Shown: one piece after another, positions 3,403 through 56,700 of the stretch | Layout: each line of letters opens with the position of its first letter | How positions within the stretch are numbered: the first letter of the stretch is position 1 | Source: Terriglobia bacterium | Lineage (GTDB): Bacteria > Acidobacteriota > Terriglobia > 20CM-2-55-15 | Direction: 5' to 3' | DNA: 64,000 bases | NCBI GenBank assembly: GCA_965198225.1 | Contig: CBDAOY010000007.1 | Span: 990,045-1,054,044 of the forward strand | Notes under the pieces: generated by a model | The model's database searches: none | What the model saw: only the letters and a program-made list of their open reading frames with translations | Told to the model about the DNA's origin: nothing | Program-made: the position numbers and the translations under genes

Positions 3403-6400
3403 TCAGTCTTCGCCGCCTTTCCCGGACTTCTTGGACTTATCTGACTTTTCGGATTTGTCCGATTTGCCGGACTTGCCCGACTCCTCAGACTTGTTCGATT
3501 TTCCGGACTTGTCGGACTTACCCGATTTGTCGTCATCGTCGCCTTCGATGTCAGCCTGGATGCGGATCTCTCCCGAGTCGTTGCCGATCGTTAGGTTGAC
3601 CTCGACTGGATTCGAGATACTGTCCAGATTCACGGCCTCCGCCTCGACTCGAAAGTCGAAGGCGTCCGGACCCAGCTCGCGAATCCTCAGCTCCAGCTCG
3701 ATCCCGGCGACCTCGCCTTCAAACTCAAAGATGTCCGCACCACCCTTACGGCGGAACTCCAGCGAACCTGCCGGCAGCGTCAGTTCGAAGACGCCGATGT
3801 TCAGGACAACATCTTCCTGTGACGGGTCGATACCGTCGGAAGCGACGCCCAGCGTGAAAGCTTCCCGGAGGTCGAACTCGCCGTCCGCGCCCGTTTCAAT
3901 CTCAGCGACGGCGGCGAAATCGGCAAATATCTCTGGCTGCGTGTCGCGGATGGTGATCTCCACAGTGTCGTCGACGCAGTCGGAGCGAGAGTTGCAGGCC
4001 CGGAAGGCCGCCGAAACAATGGTATCCGCTCCCACCGACGGTGCGAGGAACGTTGCGCTGGCTCCCGACGTCTCGAAGACGCCGTCGCTGTCTGTGTCCC
4101 ATTCAAGAGTCAGGAACGACACATCGCCCCCTTCCGCGTGGGTAACAGTCCCGTTGAGCGCAATCGACTCTCCTTCGTCGACCTCGTACGGCCCCCCGGC
4201 ATCCGCCGTGATACCGGCGAGATCCTCGTCGCCGAACGTGTCCCCGGGAGCTACTGCTGCTATTTCGTTGCCGTCGGAGTCAACCACCCGAAGTGCAACG
4301 TTGCCCAGATTCTCGACCAGGAACTGTCCCAGCGGGGACTCGGTGACCTTGCCGATCCCGCCCGTCGGGATCGACACGAAGGTGTCAGCGCCGAAGCCGA
4401 CCTCGACTGGCCCACGGAGGACCTCTAAGGTCAGGGACCCGCACAGGAACTTCACGGCATCGTTCTGGTCCAGGTCCACTCCCTGGCCGCACGCCACGAT
4501 GTGCGCCTTTTCGGTCCCGCCCCTGGCGTTGGCGAACAACCCGTTTCCGAACGCGTCCCAAACCGTCACGTGCTGGTCCGCCCGGATCATTATGAAACCG
4601 GAACTAATCCCGTCGCTGAAATCGTCAGAAAAGGTCTGATCGGTGTCCACCTGGTCGATGATCCCGTCGCCGTCCCGGTCTTGCGGACCGATGGCCGTGA
4701 CGCGGCCCCCCACCCCAACGATGGCGCCGACCACCTTGTTCGAAACCGTCCCGTTTTCGTCCACCACCTCGATGACCTGAACGACGGACTCACTGGCCAC
4801 GTAGACCTTCGTCCCGTCCGGACTCACTGTGACGTCACTACCGAACGCCCCCGGCACTGCCGGGACGACGACGTCCTTGACGTTCGTGTCGATAACCGCG
4901 ACTCCAAACGGTCCCATCGCAACGTAGACGAGATGGCCATGGCCGTCTACGGGCTGCGGTGTCACGGCCAGATCGGACGGTACACCTCCAACGCTGATGT
5001 CCTTGACCTTCATGCCGTACTCACTGGTGTTCCTGTCAGCGCCGATGACGGAGACGGTCTTCGCGTTGGCAAAGGTATTCCCCACATAGGCCCACTGACC
5101 GTCGGGCGTCACGAGTACAGGACTGGGCTGGGTACCGACAACGATGTCGAGGGCCTCGGAGGTCTCGGTGTCGATCCGCGTGACCTTTTTCTGTTCGCGC
5201 CGGGTGGCGTAGACCTGAGTGCCGTCCGGGTGCACCGCCACACCGTCGAAGTTTTCCGCTGCTTTACCGGAATGTAAGACGGTCAGACCATGGGTCTCAG
5301 TGTCCATCACGTAGATGTCCGACCTGTTGCCACCCTGGTTGTCATTTTTGTCCTCGTGGACCACGACGAAGAGCTTCGTTCCGTCGGGGCTCACGACCAG
5401 TGCTTCGGGACCTGGTCCAACGACGTCCTCAACGGGGATAGGGACCTTGTGCACCTGTTTGGTGGCCGTGTCGAAGACCACAACGTTTTGGAGGTTGTTA
5501 AGGGAGTCCCGCTCGAGCCCATAGACTTCTGCCCCGTCTGGACGGACTGCGACGGCACCTGGCGCGCGATCAGTCAGGCCCGGCACAAGAGCTCCCGGCA
5601 CCGTTTCGGTGAGCAGGCAGTCATTGGCGGTGTCGATGATGCGGCCGTCGCCGGTATAGGCAAGCGGCCCGCCACCGCCGGTGCACGAAAGGGTGATCTT
5701 CGCGACGAACGCGTCGTTTCCGATTCCAGCGTTTGGCTGCAGCGTATTCCCCTCCTGCGGGAAGTTGGCGGATCCCGTTGTGCCGGCGACATAGACCTCA
5801 CCGAACGGGTTGACCGCGATACCGGAGCCCCTGTCGGCTCCGCTTCCTCCAAGGTAGGTGGAATACACGAGGTCTGTCCCGGAAAGGTTGAACTTGCTGA
5901 TGAAGGCATCGCAGAGCGTGCCATCGTGCAAGTGGGCTACGGGGTCCTCGGGTAGAGGGTCGACGAGTGGGAAACCGGTCATCGGGGCAGTCGTCGAGCA
6001 GCCCTGCCCGGTCACGTAAACGCCCGAGGGGTCTGCCGCGACAGCGTATCCGTAGTCGTCTCCCACGCCGCCCAGGAACGTGGAATACGTGAGATCCGCA
6101 CAGTTGTTGTACTGGACCTGTCCGATCGGGCAGCTCACGAAGGAGGAGTTGCCCGCGGACAGTGCCGCCACAAACACATCGTAAGTCCCACCGCCATGTG
6201 TCTCCTGGTAGGTGCCCGGAAAGCCGAAATTGCTGGAGGAGACAGGGAAGTCCATCGAAATGGTCTCTCCTGTGACCACGATTCCCCACGGACTGAAGGA
6301 TATGCCTCGCGCCAGGTCCCAGCTGGAGCCGCCCAGGTAGGTGGCATACTCCAGACGAGCTATCCCCTGGTTGTTTGTGCCCAGTTCGGCCAGAAAGGCG

Positions 6401-8301: not shown

Positions 8302-8422
8302 GCTTCGTCCGTAAGAGATCAAATCTGAGAGCCTGGGAAGTGCTGTGATAGCCGCCAGCAAATCAGTAGTCAGTTGCTTTTGGCGCATCCCTAACTGACT
8401 ACCGACTCCTGACTACTAACCA

Positions 8423-9748
8423 TCAATTCTTCCAACTGTCGGCCCACAAAGGCAGGCGCAGCCTGGCCGCACAGCCTTGCCCCTCGCCCCGGTTCTCCAG
8501 TGTCAGGGTACCCTGATGCGCTTCTGCGATCTGTCGGCTCAAAACCAGCCCGATTCCCGAGCCGCCCTTCTTGGTGGTGAAGAAGGGGACGAACAGGTTG
8601 GAGGTGTTCGGCAGGCCCGGGCCTTCGTCTTCAACCCAGATGTGCAGGTGGCCGCCGGAGCGACTCCACCCCGTTCGCACATCACCTCCAGTTTCGAGAG
8701 ACGCGTCGACGGCATTCCGGACCAGGTTGATGAGGAGCTGCTCGATCTGTCCGCCGTCGGCTTCGATCGTGATCGGCGGACCTGGTATCAGGTTGACCGG
8801 CAGGCGCGTCTCCATTCCGACGACTCGACGTACCAGGGTGTCCACATCGACCTCTTCGGGTTTCGGTTGAGGTAGGCGTGCGAGCTTGGAATAGGACTCG
8901 ACGAACTGGATCAGGGAAGCGGATCGGGACGAGATCACCGAGAGACCGTGTTGGACGTCTTCCTCCCAGTCCGCCGGCCGCTGATCGCGCCCGAGCAGGC
9001 TCATGAGACTGCTCGCGATCGAGCTGATCGGTGTCAGGGAGTTGTTCAACTCGTGACCCAGAACGCGCACGATCCTCTGCCAGGTTCGCCTTTCCTCCTC
9101 GCGGAGCGTCCGGCTGAGATCGGACAGAACCAGCAGCTGGTGGGGAAGTCCACCCTGGCGAAAATTTGTCCGGCGGATCTCCCACCGGCCCCCGCCGCCC
9201 GGGAAACCGAACTCGACCAGCCGCGGCGTTTTGCCCTCCAGGCAATGTGCCAGACCCAGTTCGGCGGCGTTCGCGCCGAGCAGGCGTTCCCATGGTCTGT
9301 TCAGGAGGCGTTCGCCGGCACGGTTGACCAGCCGTAGCTTCTGGCCCTCGTCGAAGGAGAGTATCGCGACGTCGATCTCCTCCATGATCTTCTGCAAGAG
9401 CGCGGTTGCCTCGAGCGCGTCCATTCGCTGCCACCGGAGCGTGTCGGCGAGCGCGTTGATTTCTCGCGTCACATCTCCCAGCGCGTCGTCAATTCGGGCA
9501 CTGCTGCCACGGATCGAGTAGTCCCCCTCACGGAGCCCCGCGAGCAGGTTGGAAAGGGTCTGAAGGGGGAAGACCACTTTCTGCCTGGCGCCGAACGCCG
9601 CCCCTAACCAGACCACGAGGATCAACACCGACAGCGTCCACTGGACTTTCGCCGTGTAATCACTGCTCCAGAGGATAATCAGGGAGATGAGCGAGCCGGG
9701 GACCCCGGCGGTGAAGGCGATCCAGAATATGCGCTCTTCGTGTCGCAT
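8423..9748 (-). CDS. sensor histidine kinase (two N-terminal TM helices, HisKA, HATPase_c)
   Basis: The H-box is HELNNSLTPI and the G-boxes include GSGIGL. It is co-oriented with the NtrC-like gene. Confidence 0.85.
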   Translation of the reverse strand: MRHEERIFWIAFTAGVPGSLISLIILWSSDYTAKVQWTLSVLILVVWLGAAFGARQKVVFPLQTLSNLLAGLREGDYSIRGSSARIDDALGDVTREINALADTLRWQRMDALEATALLQKIMEEIDVAILSFDEGQKLRLVNRAGERLLNRPWERLLGANAAELGLAHCLEGKTPRLVEFGFPGGGGRWEIRRTNFRQGGLPHQLLVLSDLSRTLREEERRTWQRIVRVLGHELNNSLTPISSIASSLMSLLGRDQRPADWEEDVQHGLSVISSRSASLIQFVESYSKLARLPQPKPEEVDVDTLVRRVVGMETRLPVNLIPGPPITIEADGGQIEQLLINLVRNAVDASLETGGDVRTGWSRSGGHLHIWVEDEGPGLPNTSNLFVPFFTTKKGGSGIGLVLSRQIAEAHQGTLTLENRGEGQGCAARLRLPLWADSWKN

Positions 9749-10246
9749 GGCTCGTTTTAGTTACAAGTAGGCCGTTGTCCGTTATTGTGGCAAATGACTC
9801 GTAGCCGTAAGCTGATCGCTGATGGCCAACTGACCGCCGGCCGGCTGCAGGCCATAGCTATCACCGGCCGCATCGCCGCCACGTGCCACAACAACGGCCT
9901 ACGGATAACGACCTACATCACTCCCACCAACTCATCCTGGCCGGGGACCCGGCGGTGAAGGCAGTCCAGAATATGTAATCGTCGTGTCGCATGGTCCGTT
10001 TCGTTACAAGTAGGCCGTTATCCGTAGGCCGTTATTGTGGTAAATGACTCGTGGCCGGAAGCTGATCGCTGATGGCCGACTTACCCGCCGGCCGGCGGCA
10101 GTCTGGCCACGAGCTATCATCGACCGCTTAGCTGGGACGTGCCACAACAACGGCCTACGGATAACGGCCTACGGCCGCGTCAGCGGCCCAACGGCCTACG
10201 GATAACGACTCACGGCCGCGCCAGCGGCCCAACGGCCTACGCTCAA
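9749..10246. repeat. tandemly duplicated ~235-250 bp block. It carries REP/MITE-like inverted repeats of GTAGGCCGTTATCCGTAGGCCGTTATTGTGG and CCACAACAACGGCCTACGGATAACGGCCTAC, plus a degenerate second copy of the kinase 5' end.
   Basis: Block 9690-9920 aligns with 9941-10170 at about 85% identity. The second copy encodes a pseudo-start MRHDDYIFWTAFTAG.... The GGCCTACGGATAACG motif also occurs at 22297, 28721, 28782 and 28858. Confidence 0.7.
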
Positions 10247-11617
10247 TCACAACTCGTATCTTTGTATCCGCCTGTACAACGCGCTCCGGCTCAACCCCAG
10301 GGCCTTCGCCGCCTGGCTGACGTTGTTGTCGTACCGCGCGAGAGCCTTGCGGATCAGGAACGCTTCGACCTCCTCCAGGCTCATGTCTTCGACCCGGCCC
10401 GCGGTTTCACGGCCATCGTGCAGACCCAGATCGGCCGAGGTGATCATCTCTCCCTGCGCCATCAGGACGGCCCGCTCGATGGCATGGTCCAGTTCACGAA
10501 CGTTACCCGGCCACGGGTGGTCGACGAGGATCGGCAGTGCTGACGGATCGATACCACGAACCGGCTTGCGATACCGTTTTGCGTAGGTGTTCAAGAAGTG
10601 GATCGCCAGTGGCCGTATATCGTCGCGACGGTCTTTGAGGGAGGGCAGGCGAATCTCGATCGTATTCAGTCGAAACAGCAGGTCCGGGCGGAATCGTCCT
10701 TCGGCAGCTTCCTTGACCAGGTTCGCGTTCGTGGCCGACAGGACACGCACGTTCACGTTGCGTGTCTTGGACGAGCCGACGCGTTCCAACTCCCCGGATT
10801 CCAGGACGCGCAGCAGTTTGGCTTGCTGGGTCAGCGGAACGTTGGCGATCTCGTCGAGAAAGAGCGTTCCGCCGTTGGCCAGCTCAAAGCGCCCGACGCG
10901 GTCGGTCTTGGCATCGGTAAAAGCGCCTTTCACGTGTCCGAACAACTCGCTTTCGAAAACACCTTCCGCAAGTCCGCCGACGTTCACCGTGACCATGGTG
11001 TTCGACGCGCGTTCCGACAGCGCGTGGATGGTGCGTGCGACCACTTCCTTGCCGGTTCCGTGTTCACCTGTGATCAGCACGTTGGCGTCGGAGGGCGCAA
11101 TCCGTGTCATCAACTGGAGCACGGGTTGCATCGTAGCGGACTCGGCGATGAAGCTCGGCCGTCCCTCCGCGCGCAGCAATCGGTTCTCCGCTTCGAGTCG
11201 CTGCTCGTTCCGCAACGTTCGGCAGAGTTCGATCTGCGTGCGCACGATCGCCAGGAGGCGGGGGTTTTCCCACGGCTTCTGGATGAAATCCCGGGCCCCA
11301 CGACGCATTGCCTCGACGGCCAGCTCGATCGTACCCCAGGCCGTCATCACGACCACGGGCAGAGTGCTGTCGATGGTGCTGATTTTGGTCAGCAGGTCGA
11401 GTCCCTCCTGCCCGGAGGTGGTGTCCCTGGCGTAATTGAGATCCACGATCGCGACGTCGAAATCGCGCGCTTCGATCGCACTGAGGATACCCGACGGCGT
11501 CGTCGCGGCCTCGGTTCGATACCCTTCAGCCTTCAACAGAAGCCGCAGGGCCTCGAGGACGTCGGACTGATCATCCGCAATCAAGACCTGGGCCGGGGAA
11601 GCGCTTCGGTTTCTCAT
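10247..11617 (-). CDS. sigma54-dependent response regulator, NtrC/Fis family (REC + AAA+ sigma54 activator + HTH)
   Basis: It contains the REC aspartate pocket, GEHGTGKE, GAFTDA, ESELFGH and a C-terminal Fis-type HTH. Confidence 0.9.
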   Translation of the reverse strand: MRNRSASPAQVLIADDQSDVLEALRLLLKAEGYRTEAATTPSGILSAIEARDFDVAIVDLNYARDTTSGQEGLDLLTKISTIDSTLPVVVMTAWGTIELAVEAMRRGARDFIQKPWENPRLLAIVRTQIELCRTLRNEQRLEAENRLLRAEGRPSFIAESATMQPVLQLMTRIAPSDANVLITGEHGTGKEVVARTIHALSERASNTMVTVNVGGLAEGVFESELFGHVKGAFTDAKTDRVGRFELANGGTLFLDEIANVPLTQQAKLLRVLESGELERVGSSKTRNVNVRVLSATNANLVKEAAEGRFRPDLLFRLNTIEIRLPSLKDRRDDIRPLAIHFLNTYAKRYRKPVRGIDPSALPILVDHPWPGNVRELDHAIERAVLMAQGEMITSADLGLHDGRETAGRVEDMSLEEVEAFLIRKALARYDNNVSQAAKALGLSRSALYRRIQRYEL

Positions 11618-14560: not shown

Positions 14561-14723
14561 AAGTCCTCCGATGGTGGATATGCGAATCGCGTTCCAGTCT
14601 GCTGTTTCTGTTAAGTCTATCTGTTTTCATCACTTCCACTTCGTCGAATCCACTAAACCAGGACGCAAGGTGTTCGCTTCTGGGATTGCATTCAGCGAAA
14701 GCGAACGTGTTCACAACCTCGTC

Positions 14724-17387: not shown

Positions 17388-17705
17388 TTCTCTCTCCTTC
17401 ACGATATTGAGTGCACTTACGGGCAGGGTTACCCGAATGTTCAATACCGTCCACCAGTCCATCGGTTACGCCCGGTTCGGGATTCGCGAGTGCGATCGGT
17501 CGCAAATCGTCGTCCGGTCGCCTGCATGCTCGCATGCGCATCTCCCGTTCCATCGTTCCGATTCACGTAATTCGTTGAAAGCAATACGGCAATGGTTCAC
17601 CCGCGGGTGATGCCCCGCTGTCCCCGTGCCCGTCTGTGGGACGGCCGGTCCGAAAACGAACAGTGGAGTCGAGCAGGGCTGAATTCAGTCTGACGGACGC
17701 GGCGT

Positions 17706-22300: not shown

Positions 22301-22372
22301 GTCGTAGGCCGTAGGCAGTTGTGCGCGGGGGTCCGTTCAGCTTAACGGTCCGCGAGAGAGCCATCGTGAGGG

Positions 22373-22394
22373 GACAGGGCTAGCCCTGTCCCAG
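22373..22394. repeat. palindrome GGGGACAGGGCTAGCCCTGTCCC (member of the GGGACAGGG-N-CCCTGTCCC family)
   Basis: It is a perfect inverted repeat. Related copies are at 32163, 32301 and 40389. Confidence 0.6.
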
Positions 22395-25413: not shown

Positions 25414-25688
25414 CTAGTGACCTGTAACAGTGCTATCGGTACCAGCGTTCGGCGGAACGGCGTCGGATTCTAGGAGTGACGCCCGAGCCAATGCTGTTTC
25501 ATTGCGAGGGCGTTACGACACCGAAGACGGCGCCGTTCCGACGAACCCTTCGGGCCGATGGGGGTTGCGGGCGATCTCTTTGTCGGAAGCCGTCACCGAT
25601 GAAAGAGCATCGCTTTCCGTCTCCCTCCTCGACCTCGCCCGCAAGACCCATCGGCGATGGTGCCGATAGCACTGTTACAGGCCACTAG
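25414..25688. mobile_element. 275-bp MITE-like element, copy 1, with ~33-bp terminal inverted repeats CTAGTGRCCTGTAACAGTGCTATCGG
   Basis: The left TIR is at 25414-25447 and the right TIR at 25656-25688. The interior is highly self-complementary. A near-identical copy is at 34705-34979. Confidence 0.7.
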
Positions 25689-27671: not shown

Positions 27672-27683
27672 CGTGAGGCCCAA

Positions 27684-27735
27684 TGTCCAAAGTCCGAGGT
27701 TCAAAGTCCGAGGTCCAAAGTCCAAGGTCGAATGT
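27684..27735. repeat. tandem ~15-bp repeat (GTCCAAAGTCCGAGG, 3.5 copies) between oppA and oppB
   Basis: Seen directly in the sequence. Confidence 0.6.
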
Positions 27736-27791
27736 CTGGAGATCAGTTAATGACGTCGGACAGTGGACTTCGGACCGTGGACTGATTCCCG

Positions 27792-28712: not shown

Positions 28713-28898
28713 AGAAGTTATGCGTAGGCCGTTATCCGTTGTCGGAAGAGGAGCTACCAACTCACAACGACGTACCAACGGCCTACGGCCTACTGAACCG
28801 AGGAAGTTATGAGTAGTCAGCTGTCAGTAGTCAGTTTTGGGAAAGGGATGGCGTACCGCCCAACGGCCTACGGACAACGGCTTACGACTTATTGACGA
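28713..28898. repeat. intergenic REP/MITE-like repeats inside the opp operon (GTAGGCCGTTATCCG / CAACGGCCTACGG family plus two AGTAGTCAG units)
   Basis: The motifs are shared with 9749-10246 and 8365-8421. Confidence 0.6.
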
Positions 28899-29837: not shown

Positions 29838-29978
29838 GCACGGATTACACGGATGGACTTACACATACAGGAGGAAGACAAGCCACGGATTGCACGGATT
29901 ACACGGACAGGAAGAAGCCCGTGGTCTGCATTCCGAAAAGACTACTCCTAATCCGTTAAATCCGTGTAATCCGTGGCT
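29838..29978. repeat. CACGGATTACACGGA repeat cluster (direct and inverted copies) between oppC and oppD
   Basis: Copies are at 29839-29855, 29884-29909 and 29951-29976. The flanking inverted repeats are GCCACGGATT / AATCCGTGGC. Confidence 0.6.
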
Positions 29979-29999
29979 TAGCAGTCTGAACATCAACGT

Positions 30000-32122: not shown

Positions 32123-32143
32123 GAAATTCCTGTCTGAAAAGTT

Positions 32144-32400
32144 TTGGGTAAGTAGACACCCGAGGACAGGGCTATACCCCTGTCCCCCTCACATTGGCTC
32201 TTTCACGGACTTTTCGCGTAGCGACCGGAAAACCCTCTGTGCCTCCGCGCCTTTGCGGTGAGATCGCCGCTCTGAAGAGTTCTGCGTAAGCAGACACCCG
32301 GGGACAGGGCTATACCCCTGTCCCCCTCACATTGGCTCTCTCACGGACATCCCGCGTAACGACAGGAAAACCCTCCGTGCCTCCGCGCCTCCGTGGTTAG
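32144..32400. repeat. two tandem ~139-bp repeat units in the convergent intergenic region. Each contains the palindrome GGGACAGGGCTATACCCCTGTCCCC.
   Basis: Unit A (32144-32282) aligns with unit B (32283-32400) at about 88% identity. Confidence 0.7.
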
Positions 32401-34704: not shown

Positions 34705-34979
34705 CTAGTGACCTGTAACAGTGCTATCGGTACCAGCGTTCGGCGGAACGGCGTCGGATTCTAGGAGTGACGCTCGAGCCAATGCTGTTTCATTGCGAGG
34801 GCGTTGCGACACCGAAGACGGCGCCGTTCCGCCGAACCCTTCGGGCCGATGGGGGTTGCGGGCGATCTCTTTGTCGGAAGCCGTCACCGATGAAAGAGCA
34901 TCGCTTTCCGTCTCCCTCCTCGACCTCGCCCGCAAGACCCATCGGCGATGGTGCCGATAGCACTGCTACAGGCCACTAG
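34705..34979. mobile_element. 275-bp MITE-like element, copy 2
   Basis: It is about 97% identical to 25414-25688, with the same TIRs. Confidence 0.7.
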
Positions 34980-45254: not shown

Positions 45255-45588
45255 TTATCCCGGGCGTCGACGCATCTCTTCCCGGGTGATGAATCCATCA
45301 TCGTCCGCGTCGAGGCGGTCGAAGGCCTCAGTCGGTCGGGTCCACTCGTCACGAGAAACCTTGCCGTCGCCGTCTTCATCCATCTGGAGCATCGCGGCTC
45401 CCCGGCCACGTCCGCCTCTGCCCGGGCGGGAGTTCTGCATCTCTTCGAGAGTGATGAAGCCGTCGCCATCGGCGTCCATGGTCTCGAACATCTGCGCGGG
45501 ACCCGGAAACTCCTGCTGCGACACGCGTCCATCGCCATCGCTGTCGAGCCCCTGGAAACGGGCTTGAGGGTCTGCGCCTCTTCCGCCT
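45255..45588 (-). repeat. downstream copy of an exact ~310-bp tandem duplication. It encodes a now out-of-phase extra EF-hand segment (...DADDDGFITREEMRRRPG*).
   Basis: Region 45301-45590 is 100% identical to 45611-45900. At the junction the upstream copy carries 2-bp and 7-bp deletions, which create a TAG stop at 45589-45591. Confidence 0.7.
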
Positions 45589-46746
45589 CTATCCCGGGCG
45601 TCGCCATCTCTTCCCGAATCCATCATCGTCCGCGTCGAGGCGGTCGAAGGCCTCAGTCGGTCGGGTCCACTCGTCACGAGAAACCTTGCCGTCGCCGTCT
45701 TCATCCATCTGGAGCATCGCGGCTCCCCGGCCACGTCCGCCTCTGCCCGGGCGGGAGTTCTGCATCTCTTCGAGAGTGATGAAGCCGTCGCCATCGGCGT
45801 CCATGGTCTCGAACATCTGCGCGGGACCCGGAAACTCCTGCTGCGACACGCGTCCATCGCCATCGCTGTCGAGCCCCTGGAAACGGGCTTGAGGGTCTGC
45901 GCCTCTTCCGCCTCTGCCGCGGCCGCCCCCGAATTGCCGCTGGATTTCGTCACGAGCGAGGAGACCATCATCGTTTCGATCGAGCCGGTCGAACGTCTCG
46001 CCGTCGCCCGTCCACTCTTCCCGTGAGATTGTACCGTCCTCGTTCGTGTCCATGACGCCCATACCGCCCGCAGTCCCGGGCCTCTGCCCCGGCCGAGGGC
46101 GCATACCACGCATGCCGCGGCCGCGACGCTGTCCCTGTTCCTGTCCGTAGGCGGTGATCTCCCCTCTGAGAGCGACCTCGAGCGCTGCCCTGGCTTCGGG
46201 GACATCGAACCCGGCCGGCCCGGGGCGTCCCTTGAAGGCGATGGTGCCGTCGGAGCCCACGACATAGATCCGGTCGGGAAACGCGGCGTACGCATTCGCC
46301 GTCCGGTCGTCGATCTTGTCCAGAATGGTCGGCATCGAGATGTCCAAGGCGGTCGTACAGATGTTGGCTGCTTCCTGGCGCTGCTCGTCGGTTTTGGCTT
46401 GTTCGATCAGGATGCCGTCGATAACATTCGCCGCTCCGAGGTTGCCGTCGGTGGGATGCGCTTCTCGAATGTAGACGAAGAAGAAATTGGCGCGGTCCTT
46501 GTAAGCCTGGTACCAGTTTTCGATGTCCACGACATCGCGGCGGAACGGGCCTCAGGTATAGCTGGCGAAGATCAGCGCGGTCGGTCTGCCCGTCATCTCA
46601 GAAAGCGTAATCTTTTGCTTTCCGTCTTTTGTACTGAGCGTGAAATCAGGCGCCGTATCTCCAGGCGTGGGGCCGCCGCCTCGCCGCTGGGCCGTGGCAG
46701 GGCTCACCAGGACGAGGACCAATAACGCAGACGCGAATGTTCTCAT
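45589..46746 (-). CDS. selenoprotein: iodothyronine-deiodinase-like thioredoxin-fold domain (Sec encoded by UGA at 46552-46554) fused to a C-terminal EF-hand repeat array; secreted
   Basis: It has a signal peptide (MRTFASALLVLVLVSPATAQ) with a GGAGGA RBS. APDFTL...RPTALIFASYT-[TGA]-GPFRRD...FFFVYIREAHPTDG matches the deiodinase motifs FGSxT-U-PPF and FLxVYIxEAHPSDGW. The hairpin GAUGUC-GUGG-GACAUC lies 15 nt after the UGA. There are at least six DxDxDG EF-hand loops. Confidence 0.7.
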
Positions 46747-48452: not shown

Positions 48453-48613
48453 CTATAGGATTTTATTATGTCTAATAATATCCATAAGTCTTATTTATAT
48501 CAACAGTATATCGTCCTAGACAATCCAGCGCCGTCTGGTATAATCCAAGCCTGTTGGGGGATATATTGGGGGAGTGCTGGAGTGCCTCTGCCCCATCGGT
48601 CGAGGGCTCTGCA

Positions 48614-49792
48614 ATGGCCATTCACAAACTCTCCCAACGCAAGGTAGACACCGCCGGTCCCGGCAAATACGAAGACGGCGGCGGGCTCCGCTTGGTGGTG
48701 TCCAATTCAGGCGCCAGGAGATGGGTCCTGCGTTACACCGTCCACGGCAAACGCCGGGAAATGGGTCTGGGCCGTTATCCCGATGTCGGGTTGGCCGATG
48801 CCCGCACGCAAGCGCTACGGCACCGGAGGCAGTTGGCGACGGGCGTAGATCCCATCGCAGCCCGCCGGGCGGCCCCGGAGACGCTACCCACCTTCACCAT
48901 CTGCGCCGCCCGGTATATCCGGGCCCATCGACGGAGTTGGCACAATGCCAAGCACGCGCGGCAATGGGTCCGGAGCCTGAAGACCTATGCCCGGCCCGTC
49001 ATCGGGGCCAAACGGGTCGACGCCATTGAGACTGAAGACATTGTAAAGATACTCTCTTCGATCTGGAACACCAAGACCGAAACGGCCAAGCGCGTGCAGG
49101 GGCGCATCGAAAATGTCCTGGACTTCGCCGCCGCGCACCAATACTGCGGTCCCCTGAACCCGGCCCGCTGGCGGGGCCATCTGGACAAGTTGCTCCCGAA
49201 GCCCTCCCGGGTGAAGCAAGTCACCCACCACCCGGCCATGCCGTATCCCGAGGTGGCGGACTTCCTGCAGGAGCTGTCCGGACACCGGAGTGTATCGGCG
49301 CAGGCGCTGCGGTTTTTGATCCTGACCGCCACGCGCACCAGTGAAGTCTTAGAGGCGCAGTGGCCGGAAATCGATCGGACCGCCGGTATATGGATCCTTC
49401 CCGCCTCCCGGATGAAAGCCCGACGGGAACATCGAGTTCCCTTATCGGATGCGACCCTGGCGGTTCTGGAAGACCTACCCCGCATGGCAGGCCACCCGTA
49501 TGTCTTCGCCGGATCTCGCCACGGACGCCCTCTGTCGAACATGGCCCTACTGAAATTGATGCGAGACATGGGATATTGCGTTGAGGGTTCCCGGGCTCAC
49601 TACGTGCCGCATGGATTTCGCTCCAGTTTTCGGGATTGGTCCGGCGAGGTGTCGAGCTTCCCGCGAGAAGTTGCGGAAATGGCCTTGGCCCACGTGGTGG
49701 AGAACAAGGTGGAAGCGGCCTACCGGCGGGGGGATCTGTTCGCCAAACGGCGCAGCATGATGCAGGCCTGGGCCGACTACCTCAAGAAGTAG
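48614..49792 (+). CDS. tyrosine-type site-specific integrase, phage P4-like (DUF4102 arm-binding N-terminus)
   Basis: It has KLSQRKVDTAGPGKYEDGGGLRLVV and the catalytic R...HGFRSSF...Y motifs. Confidence 0.85.
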   Translation: MAIHKLSQRKVDTAGPGKYEDGGGLRLVVSNSGARRWVLRYTVHGKRREMGLGRYPDVGLADARTQALRHRRQLATGVDPIAARRAAPETLPTFTICAARYIRAHRRSWHNAKHARQWVRSLKTYARPVIGAKRVDAIETEDIVKILSSIWNTKTETAKRVQGRIENVLDFAAAHQYCGPLNPARWRGHLDKLLPKPSRVKQVTHHPAMPYPEVADFLQELSGHRSVSAQALRFLILTATRTSEVLEAQWPEIDRTAGIWILPASRMKARREHRVPLSDATLAVLEDLPRMAGHPYVFAGSRHGRPLSNMALLKLMRDMGYCVEGSRAHYVPHGFRSSFRDWSGEVSSFPREVAEMALAHVVENKVEAAYRRGDLFAKRRSMMQAWADYLKK

Positions 49793-53751: not shown

Positions 53752-56700
53752 TCTGATTTCAGAACTCGGGGGAGAAATGATCCATGGGGATAAGAACATG
53801 CCCAACAATGGCGGCACGCGGGTACCGCTGATAGTCAGCGTTCCAGGAGGTGAGGGGGGACGGGTGTTCGACGACCTGATCGACTTCACCGACTTTCTCC
53901 CGACTCTGGCTGATGCGGCAGGTCTTACGATTCCTGACGTCAATATGCTGGACGGCGTGAGTTTTTGGGACAGGCTTCAAGGCCGAACCGGCCAACCGCG
54001 GGAATGGATATATACCTATTACTTCCCACGTCCGTTCGCCGATAGGTTCGACAATCCGCAACGTCATCCAGAGGCGTCGTATGTCCGAGACAAGCGGTAC
54101 CAGCTCTACGGAACAGGAGAGTTCTTCGACATTTCCGTAGACCCTCACCAAGTGCATCCGTTGCCGAGTGACGATGAAGAGTCCAGCGCCGCCCGTACCA
54201 AGCTGCAAGCGGTTCTCGACTCGATGCCGGGGAGAGGTGAGGAGATTTACCCATATTTGATAGGAACTGTCCCGGACTCTGAGCCGCGCCCGCGATGGCG
54301 GCCCGTCCTGTCGAAAGCAACTGTGAACGGCGGCCAATTGACGCTCACTTACGCCGGAATTCTGGACTCAAGAGAAGCGCCTCCCGCAGATTCCTTCATT
54401 GTGAACGTTGATGGTTCCGAGCGTGCGGTCTCCACAGTTTCGATAAGCAAAACAGCGGTTACGCTTACACTCGCTTCGGCGGTTACAGTTGGCCAGACGG
54501 TGACGTTGAATTACACGCCGGGAACGAATGCGATTCAGCACGCGAACAGGCCATTCGGGCACAAAGCGGCACCCCTGGTTCGCCAAGGGGTGACGAACAA
54601 CACTGTGGACACGACGGCGCCGGCGGTGTTGTCGATCACGAGCGACGCGACGCACCCGACGAAGAACGCTTTCACGGTGACGATAACCTTTTCGGAGGAG
54701 GTGAGGGGACTCACGGCGGGGGAGATCGCGGTCACCAATGGCACGGGCTCGAACTTTGCGGGCACAGGCGCGAGCTACATGCTCGACATCGAACCCAGCG
54801 ACGATATCGAAGCCGACGTGACGGTCCGGGTTCCGGCCGATGCGGCGATGGACGCCGCGAACCTCGGCAACATCGAGGGGATCGAGACCTTCGCGGTGGA
54901 CACCCAGGCGCCGGCGGTGTTGTCGATCACGAGCGACGCGACACACCCGACGAAGGATGCTTTCAGGGTGACGATCACCTTTTCGGAGGCGGTGACGGAG
55001 CTCACGTCGCAGGATATCGCGGTCATGAACGGAGTGGGCTCGAACTTCGCGGGCACGGACGCGCGCTACACGCTCGACATCGAGCCCAGCGCCAATACCG
55101 AAGACGATGTGACGGTCCGGGTTCGGGCCAACGCGGCGGTGGACGGCGTGAACATCGGCAACGTCGAGGGGATCGAAACCTTTGCGGTGGACACCCAGGT
55201 GCCGAGGGTGTTGTCGATCACAAGCGACGCGGCGCACCCGACGAAGGATACTTTCACGGTAACGATCACCTTTTCGGAAGAGGTGACGGGGCTGACGGCG
55301 AGTGAGATCGTGGTCAGCAATGGCCGTGGCTCGAACTTCGCGGGCACGGGCGCACGCTACACGCTCGACATCGCTCCGAACGCCAACCTTGAAGCCGATG
55401 TGACGGTCCGGGTTCGAGCCAACGCGGCGGTGGACGGCGCGAACAACAGCCACGTCGACGAGGGCGAGACCTTCGCTGTGGACACGCGGGCACCGGTGTT
55501 GATGAGCGCTGCGGTGGATGGCGACACGCTGACGCTGAGCTATGGGGAGGCGCTGGGCAACCCGACACCGGAGCCGGGCGATTTCACGATGAATGTGGAG
55601 AGCGCTGGGCGGAGCGTTTCCAGGGTGGCGGTGAGCGGAAGAGCGGTGACTTTGACGCTTGCCTCGGCCGTGGCGCATGGCGAGACGGTGAGAGTGAGCT
55701 ACAGCCCGGGGACGAACCCGATCCAGGACGCGGTGGGCAACCAGGCTCTGGGACTGAGCAACGCGTCGGCCACCAACACTACGGATGCACCCAACACGGA
55801 TCCGATGATCACGAGTCCGGGGCCGTTCAATGTCACTGAGAATCAAGCGCGGGTGACCCGGCTGATGGCGGCCGACGCCGACCCGGGGGACGAGGTCACC
55901 GGCTATACGCTTGTCGGCGGAGCCGATCGGGCCCAGTTCACGGTCGGTGAGGATACCGGAGATCTGGGCTTCCGGGCGGTTCCGAACTTTGAAGCGCCCA
56001 CGGATGCCTTCAGTAACGATCCGCCAAGTGGGGCAGGAGACAACGAGTACATCGTGGTGGTCCAGGTCAGCAGCGGGGCAGGAACGCGGGTGCGGACGGC
56101 GGAACAGACGATTCGCGTGCGGGTGAGTGACGTGGAGGAGCTTCCAGCGGCGCCGGAGGAGCCGACTTTTCCGAGGGCGACGCCGGACAGCCTGACGGTG
56201 GCGTGGACGGAGCCGGACAACACCGGGCCGCCCATCACCGGCTATGACGTGCAATACCGGGAAGGCGTCAGCGGCGGCTTCACGGATGCGCCGCACTCCG
56301 GGACGGCCCAAACCACAACGCTCATGGGGTTGAGCGAGGGCACGGCCTACCAGGTGCAGGTGCGGGCGAGGAACGCGGAAGGAACAGGTGACTGGTCGGA
56401 GCCGGGCGAAGGACGGACCGTGGCCCCGCTGAGGGTTCGGATGACGCCGGAGCTGGAGCCGCCGGTGGAGGGCCCGTTCTCGGTGAGGTTCAGCTTTTCG
56501 GAGACGGTGACGGGTTTCAGCGGAAGCGACATCGAGACGGGTCAGGACCTTGCCTGCATGGACGATCAGAACAACCCGGTGTTCTGCAACCCCGGCTTTG
56601 CGGCATTCGAGACCACGGATAGCCGGGTCTTCACCACCCGCGTGACCCCGAGGACCGGCGGGGTGGCCAATAACTACAAGCTCACGCTCACGGTGCGTGC

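Follow-up and report, generated by a model that had tools for sequence, protein, structure and literature searches.

The 64,000-nucleotide stretch of Terriglobia bacterium contig CBDAOY010000007.1 analysed here (hereafter the window) carries on its minus strand a two-component operon whose genes are separated by an array of repeats with inverted arms. The upstream gene (11617–10247) encodes a sigma-54-dependent (NtrC-type) response regulator (RR; Pfam Response_reg, Sigma54_activat, AAA_lid_14 and HTH_8) and ends with a TGA stop codon at 10249–10247, and the downstream gene (9748–8423) encodes a histidine kinase (HK; Pfam HATPase_c). The spacer between them (10246–9749, 498 nt) had been predicted, from the letters alone, to consist of two tandem units of ~240 bp, about 85% identical. 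This is indeed its organization: repeat finding recovered direct repeats with a period of 243–256 nt and 83–93% identity, and gapped alignment of the upstream unit (A) with the downstream unit (B) gave 87.2% identity over 219 aligned columns plus 15 gap columns.

Read along the coding strand, the spacer opens with a 6-nt linker followed by a 41-nt sub-repeat that adjoins the RR stop and had escaped the original prediction. It is present in 2.3 copies (10148–10241, minus strand; TRF period 41, 92% matches), with sense-strand units at 10240–10200 and 10199–10159. Each unit is composed of GTAGGCCGTT, a 6-bp GC stem-loop with a 4-nt loop, and a tail ending in GTTATCC; a motif search placed the two stem-loops, GGGCCGCTG[G/A]CGCGGCC, at 10214–10230 and 10173–10189. 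This sub-repeat is the part of the array that most resembles a repetitive extragenic palindrome (REP). Hairpin element A follows (163 nt, 10010–10172, minus), with 31-nt arms at 10142–10172 and 10010–10040 that are 97% complementary and lie 101 nt apart; its interior is mostly self-pairing too. Next comes a copy of the HK leader, identified by alignment (9993–10009, minus; TTGTAACGAAACGGACC), and a decayed copy of HK codons 1–18 (9992–9940, 82% identity, with a 1-nt deletion), whose source is the genuine HK start at 9748–9695. A degenerate kinase start had been anticipated in this unit, and the segment 9943–10001 matches 9699–9757, that is, HK leader plus codons 1–18, at 83%. Translation from this copy would yield a decoy open reading frame (ORF) of 24 codons, MRHDDYIFWTAFTAGSPARMSWWE and then a stop (9918–9992, minus), the stop adjoining the left arm of element B. 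Between the copied HK codons and element B lies an internal junction where alignment revealed a diverged, 23-nt copy of the RR 3' end (9917–9939, minus), reading CAGGATGAGTTGG... against GATACGAGTTGTGA in the genuine RR. The tandem duplication carrying the HK 5' end is thus genuine, and it also copied about 15–17 nt of the RR end, a part that had been overlooked.

Element B (150 nt, 9767–9916, minus) has a left arm of 31 nt (9886–9916). The inverted repeats said to bound each unit are present in both, with the correction that the right arm of B is only 24 nt (9767–9790), one 7-mer shorter than that of A. The last 18 nt before the HK start (9749–9766, minus; TTGTAACTAAAACGAGCC) form the functional HK leader, which is A-rich and lies outside the hairpin; no match to a Shine-Dalgarno sequence was found in the HK leader of the window or of any orthologue. 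The arms are built from 7-nt repeats in the pattern GTAGGCC GTTATCC GTAGGCC GTTGTTG TGG, and GTAG heads every 7-mer tract as well as every 41-nt unit. Overall, the elements measure 150–163 nt, with arms of 24–31 nt that are 94–97% complementary and an inter-arm distance of 95–101 nt. We considered whether each unit encodes a small protein (ORFs 10150–10004 and 9894–9757, and ORFs on the plus strand) and rejected this, since indels of 1, 4 and 7 nt break every frame; as the unit-to-unit indels are not multiples of three, the elements are non-coding.

Orthologous loci and length variants of the array

Homologues of the HK were retrieved and their contigs compared for the distance between RR and HK (loci labelled L0xx). 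In distant relatives the genes overlap by 4 nt with nothing between them (L027–L030, HK amino-acid identity 73% and 65%), and in L013 (74%) they are 2 nt apart, again with nothing between. A distance of 24 nt without the element was found in L014 (92%), and one of 111 nt filled with unrelated sequence in L012 (83%). In three groups the same junction holds unrelated 7-mer hairpins: GTGGTCA and GCTAACA 7-mers in 96 nt (L007–L010, 86%), GTCCAAA-type 7-mers in 131 nt (L024–L026, 87%) and a GTAGTCA-type hairpin in 136 nt (L003/L004, 98%). Finally, L005/L006 (93%) have a 206-nt spacer with one GTAGGCC-type unit, whose inverted arms are intact and from which the copies of the gene ends are absent. 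From these distances it follows that tight coupling of RR and HK is ancestral, that the element is a lineage-specific insertion, and that the two-unit form is derived. The comparison also looked for the same spacer in repeat-free form, and the reading stood: one relative has a single unit with inverted arms, and the deeper relatives have no spacer.

Two further accounts of the locus were tried. The duplicated kinase start could have been cargo of a mobile element, which we rejected because the HK N-terminus, MRHE(E/Q)RI.W, is kept next to other spacers or none; it is conserved in all orthologues, and the duplicated start is therefore native and not element-borne. A recent recombination bringing in an L005-type spacer was unsupported, the similarity of the flanking 40–90 nt being no higher than the gene averages. 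Two observations on the relatives stand apart from these questions. In L014 (1635–3000) the RR is split into three ORFs and DDE transposases flank the locus, so that this operon appears to decay. In the window a GTAGTCA-type hairpin follows the HK stop (8375–8422) and the GTAGGCC-type array precedes HK; in L003/L004 the arrangement is reversed.

An exact look-up of the HK and RR proteins led to independent metagenome contigs, and among assemblies with an identical RR or HK protein the spacer measures 457, 498 or 776 nt. The 776-nt form has three units and was found in two samples, L001/L020 (ERZ25072076) and L022 (ERZ25069191, a 2.78-Mb contig at 18x), identical bar one single-nucleotide polymorphism (SNP); up to the start of the extra 278-nt unit C, L001 and the window are 99.96% identical over 2777 nt. 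The 457-nt form (L021, ERZ25072670) has units A and B and a single 41-nt copy. A single 41-nt copy is also present in L023, a short-read contig that ends inside an arm, and L002 starts within the array and carries a unit C with a 70-nt deletion bounded by ACGG microhomology. In L021 (4829–6152) the HK was called only as a 193-amino-acid fragment, which, with a coverage of 5x, may be a sequencing error.

One and the same breakpoint recurs at the A/B and B/C junctions, HK codon 18 (...CCCCGGC) joined to YAGGATGAGTTGG of the RR 3'-end copy, and all units therefore derive from one illegitimate duplication. The founding duplication began about 15–17 nt ahead of the RR stop and ended at HK codon 18. 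Units B and C are 94% identical and A is 86–87% identical to either; with a divergence of 6–13% between units, the unit gains must be old. Units B and C end in ~100 nt of nearly identical sequence, made up of the end of an arm, the leader and the HK start, and the two-unit form of the window is best read as a loss of unit C by recombination between these stretches. Expansion and contraction of the array thus took place at three scales: whole units (~245–280 nt), the sub-repeat of 41 nt and the 7-nt repeats of the arms, the right arm being 31 nt long in unit A, 24 nt in B and 17 nt in C, in 7-nt steps, with differences among units of 7 and 14 nt.

Dispersed relatives and known repeat classes

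The search for further copies covered the 64-kb window and about 190 kb of related loci. The 15-mer of the arms, allowing at most 2 mismatches, gave 6 matches against 0.1 expected. This 15-mer had been said to recur at several intergenic spots in or next to the opp operon. Its recurrence is weaker than that: outside the spacer it is found in the window only at 28716–28730 and 28865–28879. The 10-mer GTAGGCCGTT, with at most one mismatch, gave 21 matches against 2.8 expected, including 22304–22320, 28724, 28777–28793 and 28862–28885. The opp operon itself was confirmed, and the sites in the 287xx–288xx range do fall in its oppB–oppC gap. The 223xx site is next to a peptidase M28 gene and not the opp operon: there a short GTAGGCC/GTAGGCA 7-mer tract and then a GC hairpin (22301–22320, plus strand) begin 1–3 nt after the stop. 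At the level of the motif, copies occupy four intergenic sites in the window.

An nhmmer profile built from four units was run on all the sequence in hand. Its best match elsewhere was a second-site copy in L003/L004 (4328–4454), directly after the HK stop (E = 2.6e-9), which matches the array in its right arm and in its left ~50 nt, GTTGTTGTGGCAGGTGAYKGCTAAGCGG included, and has a different interior. A weaker match (E = 1.4e-3, profile positions 48–198) spans 28716–28884 in the oppB–oppC gap, where one or more divergent family members occupy 28716–28890 on the plus strand: arms GTAGGCCGTTATCC... and ...GGCCTACGGACAACGGCTTAC lie at the ends, with an inner pair and a GTAGTCA-type tract between them. 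L011, a metagenome-assembled genome (MAG) of Terriglobia, gave a weaker profile match and is the sole match in the genome collection for the exact 21-mer, which had no match in JGI metagenomes; a 19-mer had none in viral contigs. The copies at other sites have in common only the ends and about 20–25 nt of adjacent interior, not the whole body. With its GTAG-headed inverted arms, the second-site copy in a relative and the divergent copy between oppB and oppC, the array belongs to a dispersed family resembling REPs and MITEs (miniature transposable elements with inverted repeats), as originally proposed.

Hairpins of this general kind are a regular feature of the window. All eight TRF arrays of period 7 or 14 fall in its non-coding 14%, and most co-directional intergenic gaps of at least 100 nt hold a hairpin that begins within ~30 nt after the stop of the preceding gene. 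In the opp operon, all junctions at which the genes do not overlap have hairpins with arms of tandem 7-mers or 9-mers: GTCCAAA/GTCCGAG 7-mers between the binding protein gene and oppB (27680–27783), GTAGGCC plus GTAGTCA between oppB and oppC (28716–28890), and 9-mers, CACGGATTA, between oppC and oppD (29838–29979). Beyond the window, the interior motif GGCCATCAGCNATCAGCTTNCGGC was found in five other JGI metagenome contigs (L015–L019). Four of them carry 7-mer tracts (GCCATCA/GCTTTCG/GCCGTCA), with a complementary tract a few tens of nucleotides away in three of the four and a position right after a stop codon in two; the fifth match, in L016, looks coding. Hairpins with 7-mer arms thus seem widespread in metagenomes, and the searchable literature yielded no Acidobacteria-specific work on such 7-mer-armed intergenic hairpins.

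Among known repeats, the GTAG-tagged REPs, their clusters known as bacterial interspersed mosaic elements (BIMEs), and REP doublets forming hairpins (REPINs) are known from Proteobacteria and from other phyla as well (Di Nocera et al. 2013, PMC3733652; Bertels & Rainey 2011, PMC3116915). According to the former survey, REP dimers have GTAG on the outside; Acidobacteriota are not listed among the phyla with GTAG REPs, the tyrosine transposases there being flanked by long inverted repeats (PMC3733652). The present array resembles REPs and BIMEs in several respects: GTAG stands at the outer end of the arms and inverted pairs form a hairpin; the repeats are extragenic, and begin a few nucleotides after stop codons, often within operons; clusters arise by tandem reiteration dragging flanking DNA along; and in related genomes one intergenic site holds different sequence families. 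Unlike REPs, its arms are runs of 7-nt repeats and not palindromes, each pairing only with the opposite arm, and GTAG pairs with CTAC of the other arm within the long hairpin, whereas the tag in REPs is unpaired. Only the 41-nt sub-repeat has the layout of GTAG plus stem-loop, with 6–7 nt from tag to stem. REPs are typically imperfect palindromes of 20–40 bp, present in tens to hundreds of copies between the genes of one genome, and the repeat flanks a cognate RAYT, a tyrosine transposase of the IS200/IS605 type. The inverted arms forming one long hairpin recall REPINs, and there is one second-site copy with a different interior; the inter-arm spacer is long (95–101 nt), whereas that of REPINs is short.

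MITEs that fold in mRNA (Correia/NEMIS, ERIC, RUP and Nezha, listed in PMC3733652) offer a second comparison. As in these, the elements are 150–170 nt long and non-coding, with inverted repeats of 24–31 nt, and lie within the range usual for MITEs (70–300 bp, non-coding, with terminal inverted repeats (TIRs) of ~15–30 bp); dispersed copies lie next to genes with which they would be co-transcribed, and would be expected to act through RNA secondary structure. They differ in that no target-site duplication could be recognized, the sequence in hand showed no insertion sequence whose ends match and that could be the parent, and the resemblance of copies elsewhere is limited to the ends and the adjoining interior.

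The third comparison is with heptameric repeats, which are over-represented between genes in Xanthomonas and Nostoc, inverted pairs included (GGGAATC in Xanthomonas; PMC4692102), have been reported as TAACTGA repeats in Beggiatoaceae, Cyanobacteria and Bacteroidetes (PMC4679880), and include heptanucleotide repeats of Calothrix, as cited in PMC4692102. The arms show the traits of heptameric intergenic simple sequence repeats (SSRs), namely tandem 7-nt units, a strictly intergenic location and 7-nt length steps, and, as in those genomes, several families coexist. The Calothrix repeats go by the name STRR. Inverted pairs occur in Xanthomonas as well, and the GTAGTCA/GTTGTCA family is the reverse complement of CTACTGA/CAACTGA, near TAACTGA. 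The unit sequences of the array differ from those described, however, and its tracts are short (2–4 units), forming complementary pairs around a structured interior as hairpin arms. Taken together, the array behaves like a BIME-type REP cluster and combines known features of REPs, MITEs and heptameric repeats; strict membership among REPs/REPINs or MITEs cannot be claimed, as the arms are not palindromes and the sequence in hand shows neither a target-site duplication nor a parent insertion sequence.

Several other repeats were seen in the window. A 275-nt MITE-like element with 34–40-nt TIRs and an inner hairpin is present in two copies 98.5% identical, the first (25414–25688) ~40 nt after the stop of a prolyl-oligopeptidase gene, the second (34705–34979) ~22 nt after that of a histone-deacetylase-family gene and overlapping the called start of a cyclase gene at 34948. 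A 138-nt tandem repeat (32133–32390, 1.9 copies, 90%) lies in a convergent intergenic gap and has the palindrome GGACAGGGCTATACCCCTGTCC in each unit; a related palindrome, GGACAGGGCTAGCCCTGTCC, lies at 22372–22391, downstream of the peptidase M28 gene, making another small REP-like family. At 45291–45915 a 325-nt segment, its length not divisible by 3, is duplicated in tandem without a mismatch (100% identity, 1.9 copies). It splits an EF-hand/T4-deiodinase-like gene into two overlapping ORFs (45255–46295 and 45589–46530, minus), and the duplication is either very recent or an assembly artefact. A 291-nt repeat (54605–55496, 3.1 copies, 84%) within a 1757-amino-acid ORF and an 18-nt repeat (3434–3531, 4.6 copies) at the 3' end of a 1533-amino-acid DUF7948/SBBP gene are probably protein repeat domains. 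Finally, a phage-type tyrosine integrase gene (48554–49792; Arm-DNA-bind_3, Phage_int_M, Phage_integrase) and, after it, ORFs to which Pfam assigns no domain suggest that an integrated element lies in the window's right half.

RNA structure, rival explanations and meaning for the operon

The RNA of the spacer is predicted to fold with a minimum free energy (MFE) of -261.7 kcal/mol, against -202.5 +/- 6.5 in shuffled sequences (z = -9.1), and the single unit of L005 folds with z = -7.7. In the MFE structure of the two-unit array the arms pair across units: an inner helix joins A's right arm to B's left arm around the decoy start, and an outer one joins A's left arm to B's right arm; in an alternative predicted fold each unit folds separately. 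The sense fold is at least as stable as the antisense fold in all four copies. The element is also well conserved: between the window and L005, 143 of 164 positions are identical (87%), and 70 of 77 in the interior (91%), against 322 of 460 fourfold-degenerate sites (70%) in the flanking genes (Fisher p = 1e-5 overall, 5e-5 for the interior), and the coding flanks next to the element show no unusual similarity. This excess points to constraint, or to gene conversion among copies of the family. A consensus scan found no sigma-70 promoter or intrinsic terminator in the spacer, though the consensus may not fit this phylum. Against Rfam, the window gave only a tRNA at the gathering threshold, and 9600–10400 gave nothing up to E = 1.

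We propose that the array is a transcribed intercistronic hairpin cluster which arose by insertion and one founding duplication, and which uncouples the HK from the RR and probably reduces its level compared with that of RR, a reading to which we assign a probability of roughly 65%. Its structural and evolutionary account is solid; the functional step we infer. A hairpin repeat of the dispersed REP/MITE-like family entered a junction at which the genes formerly overlapped or abutted, and one illegitimate tandem duplication then copied the spacer together with the RR 3' end, the HK leader and codons 1–18. According to the functional model, the array would be co-transcribed with both genes, and its RNA would form very stable long hairpins. 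As long as the genes overlapped by 4 nt, RR and HK were presumably translated in a coupled manner, and a structured spacer of 0.5–0.8 kb should abolish this coupling. HK would then initiate independently at its A-rich leader lacking a Shine-Dalgarno sequence, and its output would therefore probably fall relative to RR. The decoy starts would give only short peptides devoid of function. For the earlier suggestion that the repeats may affect expression, for example by transcript processing or attenuation, the evidence is indirect: the very stable predicted fold, the missing promoter and terminator consensus, the lost overlap of the genes, and a conservation exceeding that of synonymous sites.

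In E. coli malE-malF and similar operons, a REP hairpin gives differential expression within the operon, and the present case is alike in that a stable hairpin lies between cistrons needed unequally (more RR than HK, and in the opp operon more binding protein than permease). Compared with a REP pair the array is much longer, and it includes decoy translation starts; differential expression here would be an extension by analogy. Its hairpins may likewise shield the upstream RR message from 3'–5' decay, as E. coli REPs do.

Several points weigh against this proposal. First, no direct repeat flanks the element as a target-site duplication, and a Pfam scan (36 of ~50 genes) found no RAYT/TIRYT, Y1 or other mobilising transposase in the window; the profile likewise had no match in the insertion sequences of L003, L004, L007 and L014. 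Second, the preference for the sense strand is not significant, with 10 of 15 hairpins more stable in sense, 4 in antisense and 1 tied. Third, the fold of the consensus alignment has compensatory changes in 0 of 58 pairs among four sequences, so that the structure is supported by conservation alone, and this excess conservation could in turn result from gene conversion or from independent insertion of a conserved family member. Fourth, orthologous operons without any spacer exist, and the element is thus dispensable.

A rival view holds that the repeats are neutral or selfish DNA, tolerated without consequence for the operon, and that their length varies through the mutational noise of slippage and unequal crossing-over. 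We regard this as unlikely, yet as a possibility to be kept seriously in mind. It accommodates the orthologues that have wholly different spacers or none, the decay of the units (a decoy start at 82% with a frameshift, arms losing 7-mers), the lack of covariation, and the presence of similar hairpins at many other intergenic sites of the window. It is harder to reconcile with 87–91% identity in the element against 70% at fourfold-degenerate sites between the window and L005, and 0.5–0.8 kb of strongly folding RNA between genes that once overlapped would hardly leave HK translation unchanged.

The variation in length could, on the contrary, be selected. The array would then be a contingency locus, in which frequent changes of unit number tune or switch HK relative to RR and make signalling sensitivity heterogeneous among the members of a population. 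At least four length alleles among genomes with identical RR or HK protein, instability at three nested repeat scales and alternative pairings between the arms of neighbouring units, with the MFE structure joining the right arm of A to the left arm of B, are what such a locus would display; but the same variation is expected of any tandem array, and the 6–13% divergence of the units indicates that most changes of unit number are old rather than rapid switches, which makes this idea improbable.

We give still less credence to the idea that the element carries an outward sigma-54 promoter, driven by the neighbouring activator towards HK, and spreads such promoters as it moves. The motif TGGCA[C/G]GT-N4-GC, directed towards HK (10131–10144 and 9875–9888, minus strand), is kept in units A, B and C, in the L005 unit and in the L003 second-site copy, which reads TGGCAGGTGATTGCT (4350–4370), and an activator is encoded in the operon itself. 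Sigma-54 promoters, however, strictly require GG-N10-GC spacing, and every copy has GG-N9-GC, one nucleotide short; TGGCA moreover lies within the stem of the inverted repeat, which accounts for its conservation, and the candidates with canonical spacing elsewhere in the window differ (TGGAACG-N4-NNGC). Two intergenic sites with GG-N10-GC spacing were recorded on the minus strand, TGGAACGCGATTCGC (14582–14596), upstream of an HlyD-like gene in the efflux operon that precedes RR, and TGGAACGGGAGATGC (17538–17552), upstream of a DUF4097 gene; the count of such motifs in the window is not above chance. An artefact of assembly, that is, a spurious duplication or collapse in a repeat-rich region, is very unlikely even though two contigs break inside the array (L002 starts and L023 ends there) and the segment that sets the three-unit form apart from the two-unit form has ~100 nt of near-identical sequence on its flanks, because the units differ by 6–13%, copies that assemblers do not invent, and because both forms were recovered independently, the three-unit form in two samples with a single SNP between them, once at 18x on a 2.8-Mb contig, and the two-unit form in the window and L021.

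A hairpin array that uncouples HK from RR thus remains our preferred interpretation. It could be taken further, to propose that 7-mer-armed hairpins placed after stop codons are a broad, undescribed class of RNA-level intercistronic modules, selectively maintained in soil Acidobacteriota-like bacteria, and that unit number in the present operon is a heritable, mutable dial of the RR:HK ratio. Conservation above the synonymous rate, the replacement of one 7-mer family by another at the same junction in sister lineages, and the similar post-stop hairpins in unrelated JGI metagenome contigs all fit this extension, which we nevertheless hold to be doubtful.

As a repeat cluster, the array is of an ordinary bacterial kind, unusually well resolved, in a lineage rich in 7-mer-armed intergenic hairpins. 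On the practical side, the array breaks contigs, and gene callers mis-start the kinase or call decoy ORFs. The locus preserves a stepwise history in which a small hairpin repeat breaks a coupled two-component operon, from overlapping genes to one element and then to two or three units, with slippage nested at 7, 41 and ~250 nt and alleles that coexist in natural populations. If unit number changes the output of HK, this clean natural allele series would show how the ratio of a regulator to its kinase is set and how it drifts.

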